IMG/VR virus record: IMGVR_UViG_3300028833_000101
Coordinates: 40,703-104,702 of that record
DNA from: a virus
Taxonomy: Duplodnaviria > Caudoviricetes
Length of the DNA: 64,000 nucleotides
Strand: one strand, 5' to 3'
A program made the position numbers and the translations under genes. This document shows, in pieces, positions 23,397 through 63,949 of the stretch. The notes under the pieces are model-generated. The model did not search any database and was not told the origin of the DNA. It saw only the letters and a list, made by a program, of their open reading frames with translations. The first letter of the stretch is position 1, and each line of letters starts with the position of its first letter.

Positions 23397-23783
23397 ATGT
23401 TAAGGTGAAAAGATATTCAAGTATATGCAGATGAGGCAATTACGCGCTTTACAAATATGTATAGAAACATTAGCCTTATTGGGGCCGGGCTTGCTCCGAA
23501 TAGCCCAGATAAGTATTTAATTTATCTTGATGATAAAAAATTAGCTGGAACCTTTAAAGTAATTATTACTGAAGAATTTTTAAATGGCCAAACACAGACA
23601 ATTGATTTAGCTGCAAAGATTCCAAGTAGTTTTCCAGAAGAGAAAAAAGTTGTATTAAGAATTGCTTATGCTATTTTAGTTGCTTGACAACGACACTTTA
23701 TTGAAGCCTATAAACAAGTTGCACCAAATAAGTATGATGTAACTTTTGCTAATGCTAAAAATTGATATGATGGTTTAAAATAA
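23397..23783 (+). CDS. LRxAY-family protein 1
   Basis: Code-4 ORF with 3 TGA; KVVLRIAYAIL. Confidence 0.7.
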
Positions 23784-23784
23784 T

Positions 23785-24126
23785 ATGGCAAGATATAGTT
23801 TACAAGATGCACGTAGATATATAGTTCAAGCTTTTATGAGACTTAATAAAGCTCGTGGCTTAAATTTAGCTTTACTTGACTTAGAATATGCAGACTTAAT
23901 GGGTTGGGATTTTATTAAAGCTCATATGTATGATAAGACAACACAAACTAAATTTGATAGTATGCTTAATGAATTTATATTTACCAGAGAAGATACTATG
24001 ACAAATTTAGATACACAAGCTAAAATACTTGGAAAAAATCTAAATGAAAGAGAAAGAATTATTTTAAGAGTTGCTTACACTATTTGAAGAGATTGGAAGG
24101 AAACTAGAAATGTTGACGTGGACTAG
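23785..24126 (+). CDS. LRxAY-family protein 2
   Basis: AFMRLNKARGLNL...IILRVAYTI(W). Confidence 0.75.
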
Positions 24127-24439
24127 CCAAGACTTAGATGATTTCTGTGAACAAGCCATTAAGCTTTTAAATAAGAAAAAACAATTACAATTAGAATTAA
24201 GAAATTGTTGGCTTTATTCAAATAGCTCTGGCAGTAATTTTCATATTATCTATCATAATAACTTTTTAGATAAAGATTTTCATTTATGTAGAAATGGTAA
24301 AATTTTGCAAGAATTATCACCAGACACCGATAGAGCAGCTGGCTTAAAAGAAGTAGATGATATTAAGTTAAAAATAGTTTTACGTATTGCATATTTTATT
24401 TATAAAGACTGTCAAAGAGAAATGAAAGAGGATAAATAA
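24110..24439 (+). CDS. LRxAY-family protein 3
   Basis: AIKLLNKKKQLQL...IVLRIAYFIY. Confidence 0.75.
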   Translation: MLTWTSQDLDDFCEQAIKLLNKKKQLQLELRNCWLYSNSSGSNFHIIYHNNFLDKDFHLCRNGKILQELSPDTDRAAGLKEVDDIKLKIVLRIAYFIYKDCQREMKEDK

Positions 24440-24966
24440 TGGCTAGAGAAGCATCATTTATGTTTAAAGACCTTGAAGAGCTTGCTCAAATTAAAGCTGG
24501 TGTTTTAAGCTACCTTCAAAGAGATATTGACAAACTATTGAAGACAAAAGACTTAGATGCTGAATTTGTAAATATTGCGACACCTGGAAAATCATGAGGA
24601 AGAACTTGATTACTCTTTAAAGTTTATTATACTAAATTCAAAGATGCAGATGACATGTTAGGAAACTATGAACATGTTTTCTTTGCTTACCCTATTCAAC
24701 AAAACTTATTTACAAGAGATCCCGATTTAATGGACATCTTAGATAGACAAGCTAACATTGCAGGCAGACAAGATAAGTTAAGCGATATTGATTTAGTTAA
24801 AGTTAGAATTCTTTATCATCTATTTTATATTATTAAATGTATTCAAGAAGACAATTTACCTGCAACTATTAAACTTCCTACTAAAAAATATATTGTTGTT
24901 GAATATGCAGATGCTGGAAATTTATTCTATGAGCTAAAAGACCATTTACCTGGAGGCTTTAATTAA
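24439..24966 (+). CDS. LRxAY-family protein 4 (divergent)
   Basis: TAATG coupling; 2 TGA; IDKLLKTKDL...VKVRILYHLFY. Confidence 0.65.
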
Positions 24967-24967
24967 A

Positions 24968-25312
24968 ATGACAATAACTGAAATTAAAGACCTGTGACCA
25001 GAATGACGAATTGAATTTGTCTGTGACTATGCTTGTGAAAAACTAAGAAATATTAAAGGTATTAATTTTGTATATCTTAGAAATGAAGGCTGACAAGAGT
25101 GAGTAGATGGGACTGAGTTCTATATACCAATTATTTTTGAGTATAAAACAAATGGTACATTCTTAAAACTTGAAATTCATCAAGATTTATTTGTAGAAGA
25201 ATTTTTAGACTTTGATAAAAAAACTGGTGCTAATAGATTACCAGACATTAGAGATAAAGTAATAGTAAGACTTGCTTGACACTTAAAAGAACGTTTTGAA
25301 GGAAGAAGCTAA
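24968..25312 (+). CDS. LRxAY-family protein 5 (missed by the ORF track; 5 TGA)
   Basis: ACEKLRNIKGINF...VIVRLA(W)HL. Confidence 0.7.
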
Positions 25313-25313
25313 T

Positions 25314-26063
25314 ATGGGATTGCAACTTGGAATAAATGAATCTTCTAATATTATTCTACAAGCTATTAAAGCAACAGGTGAAAACTTTAATAGAGATTTT
25401 CATCATGTCTATTCTACCCCTGGACATCAAGGCTTTTATACTGAAATAGATGATTTTACTTTAGAGATGAAGCTTCATACAATTTCTAAAGACTATAACA
25501 AAGATGATCATGTTTTTAATTTAAATATTCCATATGAGTATTTTAATGATGATCAACTCCCTGGTGATACTCAGCTTGGAATAAAACTTACAGATCATAC
25601 TGAAGTAAAAGCTGAAATAAGATGTATGGGTCTAATCGCAAAAACATATGAAGCTTGGATTAAAGACCATGAAGTTTTTACTATAAATGATTTAAGAAAA
25701 ATTATTAATGATGCTTTAGATAGACTAAGAAAAATTAAAAAGTTAGATTTAATGGTTCGTGGAGATAAAGGTGAATTAGCTGAAAAGTATATTCAAATCT
25801 ACTTGACAGAAAATCATATTCCAGCAACTGAAGGAAGTGCTCTTGATAGATTTTTTCCAGTTGAATTACATATCTATGACTACTATACTGATGTAGGAAA
25901 TCATATAGTTGATGGCTCAATTGGTGAAGCTAATCTTCGTGGAAAAGATAGAAAAGAAATTTGTCTACTAAGAGTTGCATATACTATTTATTCAGAGTGT
26001 ATGGGCTGGCTTCATAATAAGTGACCAAAAGTTTATAATAATTATTTAAATGGTAAATTCTAA
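25314..26063 (+). CDS. LRxAY-family protein 6 (probably two tandem domains)
   Basis: ALDRLRKIKKLDL...CLLRVAYTIY; the N-terminal half looks like a degenerate copy. Confidence 0.7.
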
Positions 26064-26374
26064 TGACTAAAAATGAAAAAGAACAAGTTGTATTAGAGGC
26101 AATTCAACTACTTATAAAAAATAAAGGCCTTAAAATAAAAGTAAATAAGATGTGAGTTGACACTGGCTATTTTAATGTTGAGCTAGAATATACTATTCAT
26201 AATATAACTAAGCTGCAAGACTTTGGTTTTGTTGCTCAATGATTTGATCCAAATTATTTTGAAATATCTTGAGTTAGAGGTTTACAGGTTCCAGCAAATG
26301 CAACTGATTATCAAAAAGTATTATTAAAACTTGCATATTATTTTTATAAATGATATAAGGAGAAGTGTCAATAA
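26063..26374 (+). CDS. LRxAY-family protein 7 (missed by the ORF track; 4 TGA)
   Basis: AIQLLIKNKGLKI...VLLKLAYYFY; TAATG coupling at both ends. Confidence 0.72.
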
Positions 26375-26712
26375 TGGATCAAGTAGAAATTGATGGAATG
26401 CTCCAAGGAGCAAAAGAGTATGATGCCGAAAAATATTTAGCAGAAGCAGCTAAATTACTTTCACGTAATAAAAAATTAAATGTTGAAATAGATGACTGTG
26501 AGTGATACGTTAGTGATATAACTAATCGACTTGTATTAAAAATTTGATATTCAGTTAATAGTCATGATGTATTGCTAAAGGTTGTTGAGTCTCTGTTTAA
26601 AGACTACCAAAGACCTGCTGATGCTGAAATTGGGATTAAACCAGGAATGGAAATGAAACACAAAATTATCCTAAGACTTGCCTATGTATTGTATAAACAC
26701 AGAGAAGACTAA
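26374..26712 (+). CDS. LRxAY-family protein 8 (missed by the ORF track; 2 TGA)
   Basis: AAKLLSRNKKLNV...IILRLAYVLY. Confidence 0.72.
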
Positions 26713-26756
26713 AAATCTTCTTTTTTTATCTTCAATAGTTGTATAATATAATAGGT

Positions 26757-27287
26757 ATGACTACAACAGAACTAATTGAAAAAGCAGTAGAAAACTTAAA
26801 TAGAGTTAAGCAATTAAACCTAAGCATAACAAGCATATTATCGCAACTTGGTAATGATAATAATTTTTCTGTATCAATATTAGATAATGAAAGCGACTGC
26901 ACATTTGATACTATTATTGATGAAAATATATCTACTCAACAACTATTGCCAGATGACCATACAAAGCTATCCCCAGATAATATTATAATGTTAAGAATAG
27001 CTAAGCATATATTTGAAGCATATAAAAAGTTTAAAAACAATGTTGTCAATGCTAGCCTAACACTAAATAATAATCCAACTATTAGTTCAGTAAAAATTGG
27101 TCAAGCTACTTATGACATAGGTGTTAATGGTAGAAGCTTAACTGCAACGTTTGATGAAGTAGATGAGTTAAAAAATAAGCTTGATAATTTACAAATTGAA
27201 AAAGATCACTTAGAACAAGAATTACAGAGCACAAAAGCAATAGTTGATTTACTGTTTCAACGATGTCAAGATAAAGGGATTTTATAA
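26757..27287 (+). CDS. LRxAY-family protein 9 with C-terminal coiled coil
   Basis: AVENLNRVKQLNL...IMLRIAKHIF. Confidence 0.72.
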   Translation: MTTTELIEKAVENLNRVKQLNLSITSILSQLGNDNNFSVSILDNESDCTFDTIIDENISTQQLLPDDHTKLSPDNIIMLRIAKHIFEAYKKFKNNVVNASLTLNNNPTISSVKIGQATYDIGVNGRSLTATFDEVDELKNKLDNLQIEKDHLEQELQSTKAIVDLLFQRCQDKGIL

Positions 27288-42326: not shown

Positions 42327-42815
42327 ATGTTTCCAGATTTATTAGATGCTCTTAGTGAATATAGTAGTTATTATACTAGTGATGTTGATCCAGAAGTTGA
42401 AGATGCTTTTAAAAGTATTCTTAAAAAAGTTTGGCATGAACACGCCACGAAATATATAGATAATACTGGAGATATTACTGGAGAAGCTCGTTCAATCTTA
42501 GAAAAAGCTTTACAATTACTTCACAAAAATAAAAACATTCATCTCAGATTCGATTTGAACTCTGAGAAGTGTAAAATGTATCAAATACAAGACCCAAGAA
42601 AGTTAAGCCCACAAACAATTTTACAATTAGAAGTAAAAGAAGGCTTAGATAAACAGTATATCAAAGCTACTATTAGTAATGAAGCTTTCACCGCTAATTG
42701 GTTACCAACTGATGACTATGCTGGTATTTCAAAAAGAATTAAAGATTTAGATACCATAACTTATCGTGGTATTAGACTTGCTTATATTATTTATCAAGCA
42801 ATTAAAGATAATTAG
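42327..42815 (+). CDS. LRxAY-family protein 10
   Basis: ALQLLHKNKNIHL...RGIRLAYIIY. Confidence 0.72.
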   Translation: MFPDLLDALSEYSSYYTSDVDPEVEDAFKSILKKVWHEHATKYIDNTGDITGEARSILEKALQLLHKNKNIHLRFDLNSEKCKMYQIQDPRKLSPQTILQLEVKEGLDKQYIKATISNEAFTANWLPTDDYAGISKRIKDLDTITYRGIRLAYIIYQAIKDN

Positions 42816-42825
42816 GAGTATGAAT

Positions 42826-43158
42826 ATGTATAAAGTAAAATGTATCGCTGATGGAATGATTGTCTGGAAGGGCACTACTGTCATAGGAATTAAAGGTTTG
42901 ACTTTGCCTGAGATGTTTAATGAATGTGATTGTGTAAAACTTCCAGGAAACGCTTTCGATTATTCACTTTCACCCTCTAATAAATATACAGAAGAACAAC
43001 TTGCTTTTATTAATAAAGCAGAAGCTGAGTGGGCTGAAGATGGTGGTGAAGAAATCGATCATGAGCCTGAGTATGGAATTAAGTATGGCGAAGATGATGA
43101 CGTCCCACTAATGGATTTATTTGGCCAAAGCATTCCAGACGATGACTTGCCGTTTTAG
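42826..43158 (+). CDS. Hypothetical protein with SSB-like acidic DDDLPF tail
   Basis: AGGAG RBS; ends IPDDDLPF. Confidence 0.65.
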   Translation: MYKVKCIADGMIVWKGTTVIGIKGLTLPEMFNECDCVKLPGNAFDYSLSPSNKYTEEQLAFINKAEAEWAEDGGEEIDHEPEYGIKYGEDDDVPLMDLFGQSIPDDDLPF

Positions 43159-43175
43159 CTTCAAAAGGTGAGAGA

Positions 43176-43403
43176 ATGAAAATAACAACTAATGAACAAC
43201 CTTTAATCATAGACTTAGAAAAAAATGAAACATTAACTATATCAAGTACAATAGTAATGATAAAGCATGTTTTTGATTTATCTTTGTACAAAACCGTCAG
43301 ACTAAAAGTTTACAATAATATATTTATAGTTGAAGCTGAGAACAAAAATAATGGCAGTAAATTAATCAGGGCTTTTTCTGATACTTGGGGGTTTTCTATT
43401 TAA
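43176..43403 (+). CDS. Hypothetical protein
   Basis: AAGGTGAG RBS. Confidence 0.55.
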   Translation: MKITTNEQPLIIDLEKNETLTISSTIVMIKHVFDLSLYKTVRLKVYNNIFIVEAENKNNGSKLIRAFSDTWGFSI

Positions 43404-43603
43404 TGAAAAATAAAGAAATAGTAAAAGCATTAAAGGGAAGTTGGAAAGACAAACCAGTAGAAGTTCTCGTTAAAATTGAGGGCGGACTATACTATCCAAT
43501 TAAAGAAATAGTCAAAAACAAGGATGGTACTTTTACTATTATAGGCAGAAACTTAACTGAGCATTCCGTCATAGGGCCTGCCAAATGGTATAAGAATAAA
43601 TAG
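43403..43603 (+). CDS. Hypothetical protein
   Basis: TAATG coupling to the upstream gene. Confidence 0.6.
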   Translation: MKNKEIVKALKGSWKDKPVEVLVKIEGGLYYPIKEIVKNKDGTFTIIGRNLTEHSVIGPAKWYKNK

Positions 43604-43787
43604 AGCTTCTGCCAAAATACACTCATAGTAGGACAAAAAGTTTAAGACTTCTGTCAAAAGCAGAAGTTTTTTATTTCTTTGTTTGTAAATCTTTGTCACT
43701 TTTGTCACTCAAATGTCACTCAAATAAAAGACTTGACAAAAAGTTGAAATTCAATTTTTTGGCAAATAATTTGCTAAATTATACAGA

Positions 43788-44216
43788 ATGAACAAAGATT
43801 ACAACCAAGAAAGATTTGACTTATTAGAAACTTTGAAGACAGATGTTGCCAGAATGATCAGACTTAAAGACCTGCCGGCAACCTGCCATTCTTTAACTGC
43901 AATTAGTGGAAGAGATGGTAGAACGGAGCTAGTATTGGAACTATTCGTCGACATATTAAATACAGAGAAAATCGCCCGAGTTTACTTATACATTACAGAG
44001 GACATTTTTGACCCAGATGGCTTTGAGTTTATAAATAGTGACATAGGTCTTGGAAATAAAAAAGTAGACACAAAAACCTTCATTAAACTTAGAGCCCTCA
44101 GAACAGTATACAATGTAATAAAAAACGTAAGCACTGGATATGCAAATGCAGTCGACCCAAATAAAATAATATATGTCAGAACACAAAAAACAGGTGTCTG
44201 TGATTATAGGAATTAA
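43788..44216 (+). CDS. LRxAY-family protein 11 (divergent)
   Basis: VARMIRLKDL...FIKLRALRTVY; directly after GCTAAATTA. Confidence 0.65.
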   Translation: MNKDYNQERFDLLETLKTDVARMIRLKDLPATCHSLTAISGRDGRTELVLELFVDILNTEKIARVYLYITEDIFDPDGFEFINSDIGLGNKKVDTKTFIKLRALRTVYNVIKNVSTGYANAVDPNKIIYVRTQKTGVCDYRN

Positions 44217-44220
44217 TAGT

Positions 44221-44601
44221 ATGAGTTACCCATATAGACCACAAAAAGAATGAGACATAATAAATATAGTCAAGAAAGCAATCAGGACCTTAAATAAGAA
44301 AAAAGGGACTACTTTAAAGATGGCCAATATTAGCTTTGGTCAAGGTGTGGACAGCAAGTATGGTTCAGGACAATTAGATACCACAATAAGTTTAGTAGTG
44401 CAGGAAACAATAAGTAAAAGAATAATGAAGCTATTCTGATATGAAAGCTTCTTTAATCCTGACTTGCCTGATGATAAAGACGAAGTTTCAGGAGTAAATA
44501 AAGTAAGTAATCCAGGAGACAAAGTATTGCTTAGAGTTGCTTACTGCATTTGGTTTGGCAGACACTGGATGTCAGCGCCACAAAAGAAAAATAAAAAATA
44601 A
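44221..44601 (+). CDS. LRxAY-family protein 12 (missed by the ORF track; 2 TGA)
   Basis: AIRTLNKKKGTTL...KVLLRVAYCIW. Confidence 0.72.
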
Positions 44602-44611
44602 TGGTGATAAT

Positions 44612-44977
44612 ATGGAAATAAATAGTAAATATTCTACACTTATTACTTCAGCTTGTGAAAGGGTACAAAGAGTTAAAGGAATTAATGTTTTTCTTTCTAG
44701 TATAGAATTTTATGGTGTTCATAAATACTCGCATGACAATGTATATAAGATAAATCTTATAACCGATAATGGACTCCTTACTATCTATCAAGAAGAAGAA
44801 AACTTTAAGTATTGGGCTGATGTCCCATGGTCTGGCTTGGAAGAGTTTAGACCAGCAGACTTTGATAGCTGATCAGAATATAAGAAGTTAATGCTTGCTT
44901 GGTGCTGGGCAATTTATAAATACTGTAAAGACTGGGGAGACTACCAAAATACAACGCCACCACCAATTGAAGAATAA
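44612..44977 (+). CDS. LRxAY-family protein 13 (divergent; 1 TGA)
   Basis: ACERVQRVKGINV...KLMLAWCWAIY. Confidence 0.65.
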
Positions 44978-45197
44978 ATTAAAAGGTATCTTAGAGATAT
45001 CTTTTTTATAACTCTTAAAAAATAATCTGCTAAATTATACTGAGAAAAAGCTAAGGCAATTGCTATTGGCTTCTTTTTTAATAATTTAATAAAAAACATT
45101 TGCTATAATTAATTGAAGGTTGTTAAAAAGGCCGAAATAGGTTTTTGGTCAAATATCCTTCTTTTTTTATACTCTTTTGCGCCGTATAATATAATGT

Positions 45198-45623
45198 ATG
45201 AATTTTAATATTATAGACCAAGCAATAAAATTAGTAAGAGATAAATTCAAGATAGATTTTACAGTCAGCCAGTATACAATACAGACGGACCCAGAAGACA
45301 TAACAATTGGCGGAGTTGCCCATCACATCTATAGAGAGCCAGAGCTTAGGATGAGTATCACTGTAGTAAAAGGTCGTAATTCTTGGACCAGCTATACAGA
45401 CTTAGATTATGTGATATTCGGAAGCGACCTACGAGATGGAAGCTTGATAGATGAAATCATCGGTGGAAATATCAAAGGTTATGAATTAGACATGAGACAA
45501 GCTCTGAGACTCGCCTTCATCATATATAATGGAATCCAGTATGGCGTAAGCGGAGAGATGAAAAAAGATTATATAGACAAAGGCTGGCATCCAAGAGTAG
45601 TAAGTTCAAGAATGAGGTATTAA
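45198..45623 (+). CDS. LRxAY-family protein 14
   Basis: AIKLVRDKFKIDF...QALRLAFIIY. Confidence 0.7.
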   Translation: MNFNIIDQAIKLVRDKFKIDFTVSQYTIQTDPEDITIGGVAHHIYREPELRMSITVVKGRNSWTSYTDLDYVIFGSDLRDGSLIDEIIGGNIKGYELDMRQALRLAFIIYNGIQYGVSGEMKKDYIDKGWHPRVVSSRMRY

Positions 45624-45679
45624 AAAATATCTCATTTTTTTATTTACTTTTAAAGGCAACTATGGTATAATATAAATGT

Positions 45680-46834
45680 ATGAGTAAGATTATCGGAACT
45701 TGTTTAGGAGAATATGTAAAAGAGGGAGATGTTTTATATGACCCTCAAACAGATACATATAAGATAAAGGCCGGAGATAGACTAGTGGAAATTGATGGCC
45801 ACGTTTTGCAATCTGAAAGTCTAAGAACTTTACAGGAAGCCTTAAGCAATGTAGACGACGAAAACATTAAGATAGATATGTTAGGTAGTTGGGCTAAAGA
45901 CCTCGACGCAAAATATAGAAGAACTTACTTAGGCGACTGGGGACCGGACAGAACAGATGAAGCTAAGACAGCAGTAGAGGCAGCGGCTGAGGCAGAAGCA
46001 GAGGCGAGAGCGAAAGCAAGGTTCGCAGAGGCGAGAGCGAGGATGTCAGAAGCGAAAGCAATGAGTAGCAAAACAGCGGCTGCGGCAGGTCCTGCAGGAG
46101 CGCCTTTTGACAGTCAGAGCTTCGACCCCTTGCGTGCGCGCGTTGAAGCCGAAACAGACTCTGGAGCCTGGAAGATAGATGGCCTCGGAGCCCGCATCAG
46201 ACCAGTGGACACCGGAGACTGGAACGTCCGCTTCACCGATAAAGCCGCTGAGAAGCTTAGGGAGAACAGCGTCTACGGTAGTGGCGTCGGAACGGCAAGC
46301 CACACCTCCGCGCCCTGGGACGATCCTCTAAAGGACCAGATAGACAAAGCTAGTAATACTGTAGCTTGCTGCGACTTACCTGAACTAAAGCCTGACTATA
46401 ATCCTAATGATAAGGTGAAAGTATATTACCATGATAGATTTCCTTCTATACCTATTCGTTCTATAATAGATGACGCGATTGAATTACTAAATAATAAGAA
46501 AAATTTACATATATCTAAAATTTCTTTACACAATGAAAAATTCAGCGACAAAGACTATAGACTTGCGATATCCTCTAGAATTCCCGAAAGACCAGGATAT
46601 ATAAAGACTTTAGAAGTAGCAATTAATCATACGGCGTTCGACAGAGCCTACAAGACAGAGCTGGACGGATATGCCAAACTTAAAGCCAGACTTGATACAA
46701 ATACTTATATTAAACTTAGAATTGCTTTCTTACTATACCAGGCCTTGAAGCTGCGAGATGAAGACGCCAGAAAGATAAGCTTGGACATCTTTAGAATTAT
46801 AGGCAGCGATACAAGACCAGGATTTCACTTTTAA
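45680..46834 (+). CDS. LRxAY-family protein 15 with long N-terminal extension
   Basis: AIELLNNKKNLHI...YIKLRIAFLLY; Ala/Glu/Arg-rich middle region. Confidence 0.72.
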   Translation: MSKIIGTCLGEYVKEGDVLYDPQTDTYKIKAGDRLVEIDGHVLQSESLRTLQEALSNVDDENIKIDMLGSWAKDLDAKYRRTYLGDWGPDRTDEAKTAVEAAAEAEAEARAKARFAEARARMSEAKAMSSKTAAAAGPAGAPFDSQSFDPLRARVEAETDSGAWKIDGLGARIRPVDTGDWNVRFTDKAAEKLRENSVYGSGVGTASHTSAPWDDPLKDQIDKASNTVACCDLPELKPDYNPNDKVKVYYHDRFPSIPIRSIIDDAIELLNNKKNLHISKISLHNEKFSDKDYRLAISSRIPERPGYIKTLEVAINHTAFDRAYKTELDGYAKLKARLDTNTYIKLRIAFLLYQALKLRDEDARKISLDIFRIIGSDTRPGFHF

Positions 46835-47260
46835 AACTTAGTTAAAGGCTGCTTAGACAAACGAAACACAATAAGCCAGGATAAATTTATATCTTGGCTT
46901 TTTTCGTGCCCCAAAACGCCCCGTTTTGCTTTTTGCCCGAAATTGGTACATTTTCGTTTTTTAGCTTTTCCGAATTTGCCCCGTTTTCGTTACTGGCCAG
47001 ATCCGCGATCCAGGGCGTCCGAAATTAGTACGTTTTCAAAAAACGAAATCACCCCAGTTTCATATTTGAGCCATTATTCATATAAAGCCGAAATCACCTC
47101 GTTTTCAAAAATGGCCAATTTGGAGCAATTTCATTTCAGGGTAGATAAAATACCTCGGAATATAAAAAAACGTCACAGAATGCGATTGTGACACATCTGT
47201 GACTATTCTAAGCTTTCGCCATATTATGCAGATGAAACCAAGACAATTTCAATAGCTATA

Positions 47261-47548
47261 AAATAAAAGCGACGACTCAGAGCCTGGAAAAGAGAGAGGT
47301 GATGGCTCGTTGTGTGTCGTCGCCGGGACCGAAGCCCCTGAAAGGAGGTAATTGTCATATAAGGAGATTTGACTCATTAAACTGCCCGAAACCTTACTGA
47401 CTTAGTTTTATCATGCGGTTTAAGTACGTATCGTTAGTTAGTCTTTTTGACACTCTATTGATTACCTATCGTCTATTGATTATCTATCGTTATACGTATC
47501 GTTCTGAGGCGGTCCTTTACATTATCGGCAGTTTTTCGGTCGCCTCAT
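47261..47548 (-). ncRNA. Candidate ~290-nt structured RNA with three anti-SD motifs
   Basis: Minus-strand TTGTATAATATAG promoter (47550-47562), 5' stem ugaggcg/cgccuca, cUUCGg tetraloop, terminator gcgacgac/gucgucgc plus U-tract. Confidence 0.65.
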
Positions 47549-48301
47549 ACTATATTATACAATTCAAATCTAAATTTTAACAACTTTTTTTAAATTTTTG
47601 TAATTTCAACTTCGTGCGTGTGCATACGTGGCGGCGCGCCAGTATTCTTAATCCTTAGAAGAATACCGTGCGTGGCCATGTGCGTGCGTATATACTAAAG
47701 CTTTCAAATCAGGGCGATTTCAAATGCTATGAAACTCAGGCAATTTCAAGTGCAGGTTAATAACAACTTATATATGATCTATCTATCTAACGATAGATCA
47801 TATATAAGCTATTTTGAAGCAGCTGTAGGTTAGCCCTGTAAAAAAGTTAAAAAAACTATTTACAACTGTTTACTTTTGTGCTATAATATTGTTATAATGG
47901 GGGGTGTTTTTTTAAAAAAAATAAAAAACCCTGAAATCGGGATATTTTAGACTGTATAATATAATAGGGAATAAAATGAAATTGGAACAATTTCATTTAT
48001 GTGTGCGCAAGCACACACGTGTAATACTAAAAAAATTCAACCTAAATAAAATTCCAAATCAGGGTGTTTTTAATAATTTAATAAATTAATAATTTAATGA
48101 TTTAATGTTTTAATAAATTATTAACACATAAATTATATGTACATGAATTATCTATATTAATTCTTAGCTAATATTTTATAGCTATAGTAGCATAGCTTAT
48201 AATATATAGCTTATATATAAGCTTTTGGCGCCCGCACACATATGTACACGTGTACAGTAAGTACAGAATTAGAGCAAGTTCAAATCAAGGAGATTTCAGA
48301 T

Positions 48302-48607
48302 ATGGCAAATCCAGAACAAAAGAAGTGACCAGTCATCACTTGCCCACATTGTGGTTATCAGTATGCTCCAGCAGAGATATTCATGCCAGGAGATCTGATT
48401 GGCAACCCAGAACAAGTTGTTAGAGATGCACTTGGCAAAATCATCTACCAAGAATATGATGAAGATAGTGAACCAGCACAAGTTGGGCACTACATCTGTG
48501 ACGAGTGTGGAAAACCATTCATCGTGGAGCCAGTGATCACATATAAAGTCAAGAAAGAAGATGAGGCAAAAGATTTCAGTGATCTTTCCGCCAGCTTACT
48601 AGACTAA
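48302..48607 (+). CDS. Zinc-ribbon protein (CPHC...CDEC); 1 TGA
   Basis: AAGGAG RBS; the first CxxC is included only in the code-4 reading. Confidence 0.75.
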
Positions 48608-48633: not shown

Positions 48634-50349
48634 ATGATCTACGTCAGAGAGATCGTTCCAAGAAAATTTTCCGGGCTAAGTTCATTCTTAGTCTCTTTTC
48701 AGTATGACCCAAAGATAGTAGAAGCGATCAAAACAGTTCCGGCCTACTACTATCACAAGAAAGATTTGTGCTGAGAGATTCCAAGTGACTATCTTGCCAC
48801 TCTTTTAGATACACTTACTTTCTTAGATAATATACAGTTGATAATGCTTCCTGAAACTGAGGTGATTCTAAACCAGGATGATTTCAGTTTGACCCAGGCG
48901 GAAATAGACCAACTTCATTTCAAACCATTTCCACATCAAGTAGATGCGATCAACTATGGCTTAAATCCGAAACACACTAAGTGGCTCTTACTAGACAGCA
49001 TGGGCCTTGGCAAAACGTTAGAGATCATCGGATATGCAGAAACTCTAAAATCCAGAGGTCTTATCGATCACTGTCTCATTATTTGCGGAGTAGATTCACT
49101 AAGACAGAACTGGAAATCCGAAATCGAGAAGTTTTCAAACTATGGTGTTAGAGTCTTAGGCGAATACATCACTAAGAATGGAACCATCAGATACAGAACG
49201 ATCCCAGAGAGAGCTGCGGAGTTAAAAGAACCAATCTCAGAATTCTTCGTAGTAATTAACGCAGCCACACTAAGACATGATGAAGTGATCGATGCATTTA
49301 AAAAATCTAAGAACAAGTTTGGTTTGATTGCAGTAGATGAAGTGCATCGCTTTGCATCATCAACATCGCAACAAGGCGACAACCTACTAAAACTAAAATC
49401 TGATTACAAGGTTGCAGCTACAGGTACACTTTTACTAAATTCACCGATCAGCTGTTATGTACCTCTAGTGTGGACTGAGAACGATCATAGCATCTTAACA
49501 AACTTCAAAGCTCAGTACTGTAAATTCGGCGGTTTTGGTGATAAACAGATCGTTGGATATAAGAATTTAGAGACACTGAGAGAAGAAATAAATTCTTGTA
49601 TGATCCGAAGAACGTTGGATCAAGTGCGTGATGACATGCCACTAAAGAACATTACTTACCAGATAGTAGAAATGTCTGATCAACATCGTAAGTTTTATGA
49701 TGCTATAGTGGACGGTGTAAAATCAGAAGCTGATAAGATCAAGCTCAATACATCGAACTTACTTGCGTTAACCACTAGACTTCGCCAGGCTACAGCATGT
49801 CCTAGTGTGCTTACCACTCAGAACATCGTAAGCTCTAAGGTCGAAAGAGCTGCGGAAATAGCTACAGATCTACTAGAGTCAGGCGAGAAAGTCGTAGTGT
49901 TCAGTATGTTCAAGGAATCTGTACAGGCTTTAGCTACGATGCTAGCACAGTACAAGCCGCTAATCTGTACAGGCGATTACACTGAACAGCAGATCAAATC
50001 TAGTGTGGAAGCTTTCCAAAACGATCCAAATTCGAAATTACTGATCGGTACGCATCAGAAGATGGGTACTGGATTTACACTAAATTCAGCATCGTACTTG
50101 ATCTGCATCGACACACCATGGACTGATGCTTCACTAAGCCAGTCTACAGATCGTATCTGGCGAATCACTAACAAGTATCCAGCATATGTTACCGTGCTTA
50201 CTTGCGCTGATACTATTGATGAACGTGTTAGAGAGATCGTCGAAACTAAGAAGGATCTATCTGACTACATGATCGACGGTGTAGAGAATGAGCTCGCAGT
50301 TAGTGAACAGCTTTCGAATGAGATGCGCAGAATCATTCAGAACCTTTAG
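48634..50349 (+). CDS. SNF2-family helicase with N-terminal HARP-like domain; 1 TGA
   Basis: DSMGLGKT, DEVH, ATGT, RLRQ, QSTDRIWRI motifs; FQYDPKIVEAIKTVP...C(W)EIP at the N-terminus. Confidence 0.9.
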
Positions 50350-63404: not shown

Positions 63405-63593
63405 TTGGCTTGTAAAGTTAAACTTAGAGAAGACGAAACGACCGATGCTTTATTGGCTAGATTCAAAAGTCTAGTAAAGAAGTCTAACATCTTAGCTGAC
63501 GTTAGAAAGCATGAGTTCTTCTTAAAGAAAAGTTTGAAAAGAAAACGTAAGTCTGAAGAGGCTCGTAAGTTAGCAAGAAGAAAGGGCAGATAA
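63405..63593 (+). CDS. rpsU: Phage-encoded 30S ribosomal protein bS21
   Basis: KVKLREDETTDALLARFK..VKKSNILADVRKHEFFLK.S.KRKRK.EEARK; 62 aa; TTG start. Confidence 0.88.
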   Translation: MACKVKLREDETTDALLARFKSLVKKSNILADVRKHEFFLKKSLKRKRKSEEARKLARRKGR

Positions 63594-63949
63594 ATTTCTG
63601 CTTTTTTATTTACAAATTTTTAGTATATGTTATAATGTGATCATGATGAATTTAGTGCAAGATGAAATTTAGTGCGAAAGCTACAGATCAGAAGCTGCTC
63701 TTCTGCAGCTGCATCGATCTGTATTCTAGTGTGAATCACTACAGATCGTGGATACAGATTCATCTGCGATGTACGATCATGTCTAGTGAATCAGGCTACG
63801 ATGTTGATGAAAACAGTACGATTCCGTGCGCTAGATAGTGAACAAAAACATGATCTGCAAAGTTTTGTTCGCAATTTCATGTAGTAAACTGTTACAAAAA
63901 TTTGCAACAAAACGTTTACATCGAAACACTAATGTGATATAATATAAGT

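Follow-up and report, generated by a model that had tools for sequence, protein, structure and literature searches.

An RNA gene in a gene-free region

The stretch of DNA analysed here (the window) makes up the last 64 kb, at the 3′ end, of IMG/VR virus record IMGVR_UViG_3300028833_000101, which is 104.7 kb long and, according to CheckV, ~46% complete. Nearly all genes of the window lie on the plus strand. Next to the helicase gene is a gene-free region of ~1.4 kb that houses, on the minus strand, the subject of this work: a gene for a structured RNA with two invariant motifs, M1 and M2, that resemble the 3′ tail of 16S rRNA. Judged by its sequence, the segment 47549->47260 is a self-contained gene for an RNA of ~290 nt, in which a promoter of host type leads into a folded body that ends in an intrinsic terminator. 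Its elements, in window coordinates, are listed here.

47592..47611 (no strand assigned): dyad of the GAAAT..ATTTC type, abutting the -35 element on its upstream side
47554..47591 (minus): promoter, with an A-tract (47591-47585), the -35 element TTGTTA (47583-47578), an 18-nt spacer and the -10 element TATAAT (47559-47554)
47505..47547 (minus): hairpin P1, with arms UGAGGCG (47547-47541) and CGCCUCA (47511-47505) that contain a GAGG:CCUC duplex, and a loop bearing AAAACUGCC
47527..47534 (minus): 5′ strand of a long-range pairing, AAACUGCC in the P1 loop, with its partner at 47386-47379
47425..47498 (minus): P2, a variable AU-rich hairpin with the base UACGUAU/AUACGUA
47454-47489 (minus): 18-nt tandem repeat inside P2, in this phage only
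47379..47386 (minus): 3′ strand of the long-range pairing, GGCAGUUU
47355..47373 (minus): P3, a weak hairpin, GUCA/UGAC, with the loop AAUCUCCUUAU, which contains AAUCUCCUU
47351-47339 (minus): linker motif UUACCUCCUUUCA, which holds M1
47340..47351 (minus): M1, UUACCUCCUUUC, an invariant single-stranded motif
47325..47338 (minus): hairpin P4, GGGGC-UUCG-GUCCC in the window
47268..47324 (minus): P5 and P6, the terminator stem GGCGACGAC/GUCGUCGCU (9 bp) around a hairpin GAGCC/GGCUC
47285..47303 (minus): 19-nt loop of P6, reading AUCACCUCUCUCUUUUCCA and bearing M2 as AUCACCUCUCUCUU (47303-47290)
47303-47292 (minus): motif AUCACCUCUCUC in the loop of the hairpin nested in the terminator
47260..47268 (minus): terminator U-tract UUUUAUUUU, present in every complete homolog

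A consensus scan gave the promoter 10 of 12 matches, and its layout is identical in all seven homologs described below; transcription would start at about 47549-47546. The dyad upstream of it has a copy at the same place in every homolog and probably binds a protein by which the promoter is timed or tuned. Because it abuts the -35 element in each case, we predict that the timing of the RNA may be set by a DNA-binding protein of the phage.

We found no conserved reading frame on either strand of this gene: from one homolog to the next, ORFs differ in length and frame, and indel lengths are not divisible by three. The initial annotation of this DNA had considered that the plus-strand AGGAGG motifs might instead be ribosome-binding sites (RBSs) of conserved small ORFs. 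These ORFs are not conserved, and with start codons 3-5 nt from the Shine-Dalgarno (SD) sequence, lengths that vary between 2 and >50 codons and out-of-frame indels, they were rejected as genes. Searches for known relatives were also negative. Rfam, a search of which the initial annotation had suggested, returned no family at gathering score for the whole window and none on the RNA even at E<=5 when 46850-48320 was searched, and a distant blastn search of the GenBank phage collection gave no match.

Homologs and conservation of the fold

Relatives of the RNA were sought in three ways, through the neighbouring helicase, through DNA patterns and with a covariance model that covers the 3′ domain only. 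Homologs were found on six further phage contigs, the helicases of which are 71-99% identical to that of the window.

L002, 3649-3939 (minus)
L122, 193-468 (minus)
L097, 1-239 (minus), a copy cut by the contig end
L004, 3564-3807 (minus); L154 has the same RNA sequence (identical covariance-model match)
L162, 2637-2900 (minus)
L164, 303-527 (minus), a distant homolog (39.7 bits, E = 1.4e-7)

Relatives with helicases of 64-73% identity (L155, L156, L159, L163 and L165) keep the gap and the dyads and gave zero matches to the covariance model. Two of them show a TTGTATAAT-type promoter at the equivalent site (L156:3040-3560 and L159:3000-3510, both minus strand), followed by unrelated hairpins and by terminators with CCUCC in their loops or upstream flanks; these units may be analogous, non-homologous RNAs. 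In the pattern scans, matches in IMG/VR beyond two known relatives were, among those inspected, opposite-strand RBSs or coding sequence, and a metagenome scan with the P1 pattern yielded 3 true cases among 84 matches.

The folding energy of the RNA by itself is unremarkable (z = -1.85) and its 10-nt match to 16S rRNA is not beyond chance in 64 kb, so the case for the gene rests on these relatives. Across the seven homologs, standard pairs fill 96.4% of the pair cells in the 3′ domain and 12 of the 18 pairs show both-sided (compensatory) changes in a model-guided alignment; fitting to the covariance model biases this alignment towards structure, and the raw sequences agree with it. None of 500 shuffles attained any of five measures, and sliding the 3′ partners by 1-3 columns reduced pairing to 30-45%. 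Individual stems show the same pattern. Depending on the homolog, A-U, U-A or C-G forms pair 4 of the terminator stem, the inner stem P6 occurs as GAGCC/GGCUC, CCGCC/GGCGG and GGACA/UGUCC, and the P4 position always holds some hairpin, the sequence of which is new in nearly every homolog. In P1, one G-C pair is replaced by A-U in L002 and L097, a double change, and the stem reads GUGAGG/CCUCAC in L004 and L162.

The P1 loop also makes a contact at a distance. The AAACUGCC:GGCAGUUU pairing is present in four homologs, with a 6-bp version, ACUGCC:GGCAGU, in L004, and it co-varies to AAGCUGU:ACAGCUU in L162 and to ACUACC:GGUAGU in L164. Because the pairing changes in step and is the top duplex between the two regions in each homolog, the alignments indicate that this pseudoknot-type long-range contact is conserved.

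Other parts of the window RNA are not shared. Only the window phage has the tandem duplication, the repeat unit being present once in L002 and L097, and L004 has a different hairpin at the P2 site. The UUCG tetraloop is limited to the window and L004, while the other homologs have a different hairpin there. The P3 loop AAUCUCCUU varies as well, being C-rich in most homologs (CACCUCCGCCUCCUU in L097, CACCCCCGCUCCCC in L122 and CUUACCUCCAAC in L162) and reading AUAACCUGA in L004.

Taken together, comparison of the homologs makes the gene and its fold as good as established. The structured minus-strand RNA that the initial annotation had proposed is thus borne out by covariation, and the promoter, the 5′ stem with a loop complementary to a downstream segment, and the terminator that it described were all found and are conserved. 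The repeat, the UUCG hairpin and the first CU-rich loop, which it listed among the features of the RNA, do exist in the window and are not conserved across the homologs.

Invariant motifs and the 3′ tail of 16S rRNA

Two segments of the RNA scarcely change. M1 (UUACCUCCUUUC) has one and the same sequence throughout the seven homologs, the distant L164 among them, and M2 (CACCUCUCU) is invariant in each of the six complete copies even though both of the stems enclosing it change. The predicted probability of being unpaired is ~1.0 for M2 and 0.58-0.93 for M1, as against 0.45-0.54 for the entire RNA. The linker and terminator-loop motifs, in which the initial annotation had recognised a likeness to 16S rRNA, are therefore present, invariant and exposed.

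The 3′ end of Bacillota 16S rRNA is GAUCACCUCCUUUCU. M1 shares a 10-nt identity with this consensus end (ACCUCCUUUC) and M2 an 8-nt identity (AUCACCUC) followed by a pyrimidine run; the tail of the phage's own host may differ from this consensus. In L162, the M1 region copies ACCUCCUUUCU of the 16S tail. Anti-SD-like words number 6-10 per RNA, compared to 0-1 SD-like words.

The exact 10-nt match singled out in the initial annotation does occur (ACCTCCTTTC, once in the 64-kb window), yet it is no more than chance would give there: with one mismatch allowed, 2 occurrences were observed against 2.6 expected. A single-sequence match to 16S rRNA is thus compatible with chance. Conservation excludes chance, because six further homologs retain the promoter, a covarying fold and the two pyrimidine motifs.

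Genetic code and the early and late gene blocks

The sequences surrounding the RNA gene indicate that this large phage decodes TGA as Trp. The helicase frame has its true start at 48634 and reads through one TGA, at a position where all 14 homologs have Trp, encoded by TGG in 2 of them. The zinc-ribbon gene (48302-48607) also has an in-frame TGA. No tRNA gene and no release-factor gene was found in the record fragment.

The record divides into two blocks that differ in this respect. A structural or late block runs from the start of the record to ~36.7 kb of the window and has many in-frame TGAs, whereas an early-type block at 36.7-64 kb of the window, with ~55 genes, almost lacks them. The early block has ~30 near-identical promoters, TTTAC[AT]-N16-18-TATAAT, each 19-35 nt from a start codon, and the late block has a motif, GCTAAATTA, that occurs 18 times. 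Early leaders are very short (~12-28 nt) and their RBSs are of the types AGAGAGGUAA, GUGAGGUAA and AGAGAGGT/GTGAGGT. By our counts, which like the division itself rest on crude gene calls, GAGAGG precedes 8/55 early and 0/60 late genes, GAGGT 18/55 early and 2/60 late genes, and AAGGAG only 2/55 early but 21/60 late genes. Because the promoters sit so near the start codons, the purine-rich early RBSs are expected close to the 5′ ends of their mRNAs.

Predicted pairing with ribosome-binding sites

Bacillota small RNAs such as RsaE/RoxS and RNAIII usually act through C-rich single-stranded motifs that block SD sites. We tentatively propose that the phage RNA likewise pairs with SD regions, the likeliest being those of the phage's own early mRNAs; we regard this as quite possible and place it ahead of the alternatives discussed below. 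Starting from the gene, its fold, the conserved and exposed motifs and their complementarity to SD sequences, we infer the expression of the RNA, its pairing in vivo, the identity of its targets and the sign of its effect as follows. Host sigma-A RNA polymerase would transcribe the RNA from the TTGTTA-18-TATAAT promoter, and the intrinsic terminator would free it to act in trans. P1 with its loop contact, together with P4-P6, would keep M1 in the linker and M2 in the 19-nt loop single-stranded, with one to three additional variable C-rich motifs exposed too. These motifs would serve as seeds that base-pair with purine-rich SD regions and rival the 16S tail. The likeliest targets would be the ~30 early phage mRNAs with AGAGAGGUAA or GUGAGGUAA as RBS near the presumed 5′ end. 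As the stable RNA builds up, early translation would be lowered, or early mRNA stability altered, while the TGA-containing late genes take over.

Several comparisons are consistent with such pairing, which the initial annotation had also inferred, though as a whole they are no more than suggestive. The mean pairing energy of the M2 loop is -9.2 kcal/mol with early RBSs versus -6.9 kcal/mol with late ones; the P3 loop has the opposite preference, late over early. Perfect matches of at least 7 nt were sought in 22 short-leader early untranslated regions behind TTTAC[AT] promoters: no region matched the canonical 16S tail, whereas 10 matched M1 (UUACCUC:GAGGUAA) and 8 matched M2 (CCUCUCU:AGAGAGG), over up to 9-10 nt. 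The GAGAGG flavour of RBS, moreover, is found before 11/74 genes in relatives that bear the RNA and before 1/68 in relatives that lack it.

Other results weigh against this proposal. The excess of motif matches over the canonical tail, which follows up a target comparison suggested in the initial annotation, holds as a count, but shuffles of the flanks around a fixed CCUC core reach the observed number in ~7% of trials (p~0.07) for M1 and for M2 each, and the M1 and M2 probes exceeded the length of the 16S tail with which they were compared. The contrast in RBS flavour across relatives comes from one clade with crude gene calls. A search of the 104.7-kb record for extended targets of M1, M2 and the P3 loop (14 nt, <=2 mismatches) recovered only the gene's own complement; since there is no extended complementarity, no known target accounts for the invariant flanks of M1 (UUA and UUUC), whose constancy fits protein recognition or 16S-tail mimicry at least as well. 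With ~30 mRNAs set against tens of thousands of ribosomes, the RNA would have to be very abundant. Finally, the 16S tail used throughout is the Bacillota consensus.

The same pairing could in principle be aimed at the host, so that mRNAs with a strong SD are blocked or decay and ribosomes are freed for the phage. M1 is an exact complement of the consensus strong Bacillota RBS GAAAGGAGGUAA, the host-type promoter with its A-tract suggests early strong expression, and each molecule offers several seeds. Phage RBSs, however, are equal or better partners, which means that phage messages would be affected too, and the numbers of host mRNAs and ribosomes disfavour global occlusion. We therefore consider host shut-off improbable.

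A different candidate target was the dyad motif of this region, cAAATC-N5-GATTTc. It was rejected as a target of the RNA: its inner bases vary while its arms are conserved, and it also lies within the helicase gene, as befits a DNA dyad site.

A possible decoy for bS21 or other tail-binding factors

Ribosomal protein bS21 is located at the SD:anti-SD helix, and the window encodes one.

63405-63593 (plus): bS21 gene (PF01165, 51.7 bits), with a TTG start, behind the late-type motif GGCTAAATTA

It has been proposed that the bS21 genes of phages tilt initiation in favour of phage messages (PMC9723584), and Bacillota bS21 binds OLE RNA at a mimic of the SD:anti-SD helix, mutation of which abolishes binding (PMC12054373). 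The phage RNA might accordingly be a decoy or partner for a protein, as the initial annotation had suggested for bS21, rather than a pairing RNA, with M1 and M2 mimicking the last ~12 nt of 16S rRNA and P1 mimicking the SD:anti-SD helix. The foremost candidate would be bS21, of host or phage, followed by Era, a 3′-end maturation enzyme or a tail-cleaving nuclease, and the effect would be to alter how ribosomes are equipped or protected in infection. We find this rather unlikely, with evidence on both sides. The 12-nt M1 is invariant together with its flanks, while no extended RNA target was found in the 104.7-kb record; AUCACCUC and ACCUCCUUUC jointly span the 16S terminus GAUCACCUCCUUUCU; P1 is a conserved GAGG:CCUC duplex; the phage encodes bS21; and OLE provides a precedent in Bacillota (PMC12054373). 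On the other hand, AUCA varies, to ACCA in L122 and CUCA in L004, and the variable extra C-rich motifs resemble pairing seeds more than a single defined protein site.

The closest RNA-bearing relative, G001, also speaks against phage bS21 as the partner. It is collinear here and has two unrelated ORFs, of 98 and 123 aa, in the bS21 slot (L167:12676-13359); G001 is ~46% complete, so the absence of bS21 applies to that locus only. Since G001 carries the RNA without bS21 at that slot, the RNA is independent of the phage bS21, co-occurrence of the two is unsupported, and the bS21 gene of the phage looks like an accessory gene. Host bS21 is a possible partner.

A combined form would place a 16S-tail decoy in a mid-infection programme of initiation. 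Here the RNA would sequester bS21 or a tail-binding factor, or compete for one RBS class, in the switch from early genes (AGAGAGGUAA, no TGA) to late genes (AAGGAG, TGA as Trp). We hold this to be quite improbable.

The surrounding region and a possible origin

The RNA gene is embedded in a region rich in DNA signals. Between 46900 and 48900 of the window there are ~15 dyad sites on both strands (cAAATC-N5-GATTTc and GAAAT..ATTTC variants), of which one is found within the helicase gene (48868) and two overlap RBSs, namely those of the zinc-ribbon and helicase genes. Because copies also occur inside the helicase coding sequence, the dyad acts at the DNA level. AT-rich 8-bp phased repeats extend over 48068-48139. 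The region as a whole looks like an origin or a regulatory hub.

It could then be asked whether the RNA is associated with an origin, where transcription or the RNA itself would aid replication initiation through transcriptional activation, as a primer or in copy control. The dyads, the AT-rich phased repeat and the adjoining helicase gene fit such a role, as does an equally large gap that is syntenic in all relatives. Against it, distant relatives retain the dyad region without this RNA, and selection acts on RNA structure and single-stranded loops that mere transcription does not need. A purely origin-related role is unlikely, because the RNA is terminated and released by a strong intrinsic terminator, is transcribed away from the AT-rich element and has a fold under selection; as an explanation of the RNA, we consider an origin association very improbable.

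The same region contains further elements. At 47767-47808 lies an AT-rich inverted repeat whose perfect 17-bp arms are 8 nt apart, and there are related palindromes at 48155-48226; weak Rfam microRNA matches at 47767-47808 are merely that hairpin. The initial annotation had called the RNA gene the only clear minus-strand transcription unit. Its promoter is indeed the sole good sigma-A-type minus-strand promoter in the early region, but a weak second promoter with a hairpin is present at 47252-47165. This unit, right after the RNA terminator, has the promoter TTGAAA-18-CATAAT followed by a hairpin, GUCACAGA...UCUGUGAC, and U7. It is present in L002 and absent in L004, and might either yield a second transcript, of ~50 nt, or serve as a back-up terminator.

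Two features lie farther away. A second candidate structured RNA (63644-63890, plus strand) stands behind an early promoter, TTTACA..TATAAT, at 63609 and lacks a convincing RBS. Its fold has a z-score of -4.4 (0/200 shuffles as good) and it contains repeated modules, UAGUGYGAA/CUACAGAUC; its sequence is ~95% identical in G001, which adds one module, and it outconserves the flanking genes. In addition, ~12-15 divergent paralogs at 23397-27287 and 42327-46834 have a common N-terminal helix and a C-terminal LRxAYxIY helix. An AlphaFold model of the paralog at 45198-45623 has an alpha-beta5-alpha layout (pLDDT, the model's confidence measure, 68). The idea that these are dsRNA-binding proteins is not supported, the model having no PDB match at E<=0.001.

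Comparison with known systems and significance

The phage RNA shares several properties with RsaE/RoxS and with Staphylococcus aureus RNAIII (H7, H13 and the terminator hairpin H14). All run from promoter to terminator and leave several C/U-rich motifs unpaired, among them one that the terminator hairpin presents in its loop, with predicted pairing to a G-rich SD. The RNA described here shows no homology to them in sequence or structure (no Rfam match at E<=5), is phage-encoded, has a long-range loop pairing and has targets that are predicted only. Its motifs, in contrast to their short CCCC/UCCC seeds, are long copies of an extended 16S tail, with 12 and 9 invariant nt. The family thus appears to be new and is uncatalogued in Rfam, while the theme of anti-SD small RNAs is itself known.

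The likeness to P6 of OLE RNA (PMC12054373) lies in a non-coding RNA with a copy of the 16S anti-SD, together with the GAGG:CCUC duplex of P1 and the presence of a bS21 gene in the phage. OLE is bacterial, ~600 nt long and has protein partners of its own; it carries the mimic as a duplex, whereas the two conserved mimics of the phage RNA are single-stranded, and binding of bS21 by the phage RNA would be by analogy only.

In phage T4, the repressor protein RegA and the nuclease RegB, which cuts at GGAG, both shut down early mRNAs at their RBSs. The proposed silencing of early phage messages at SD regions would be similar in logic only, as RegA and RegB are proteins and the agent here would be an RNA.

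Phages that switch genetic code must also govern which messages ribosomes choose. In the conserved RNA described here, nothing is invariant except two exposed copies of the tail with which the ribosome docks mRNA, which makes it a candidate for RNA-based control of translation initiation in a phage with distinct early and late RBS flavours. If pairing with early RBSs is true, T4 RegA/RegB would have a counterpart made of RNA; if bS21 binding is true, the OLE-bS21 finding would extend to viruses; and if it acts as a decoy in mid-infection, RBS choice would be coupled to a change of genetic code. Either way, the structure model is clear enough for Rfam-type curation.

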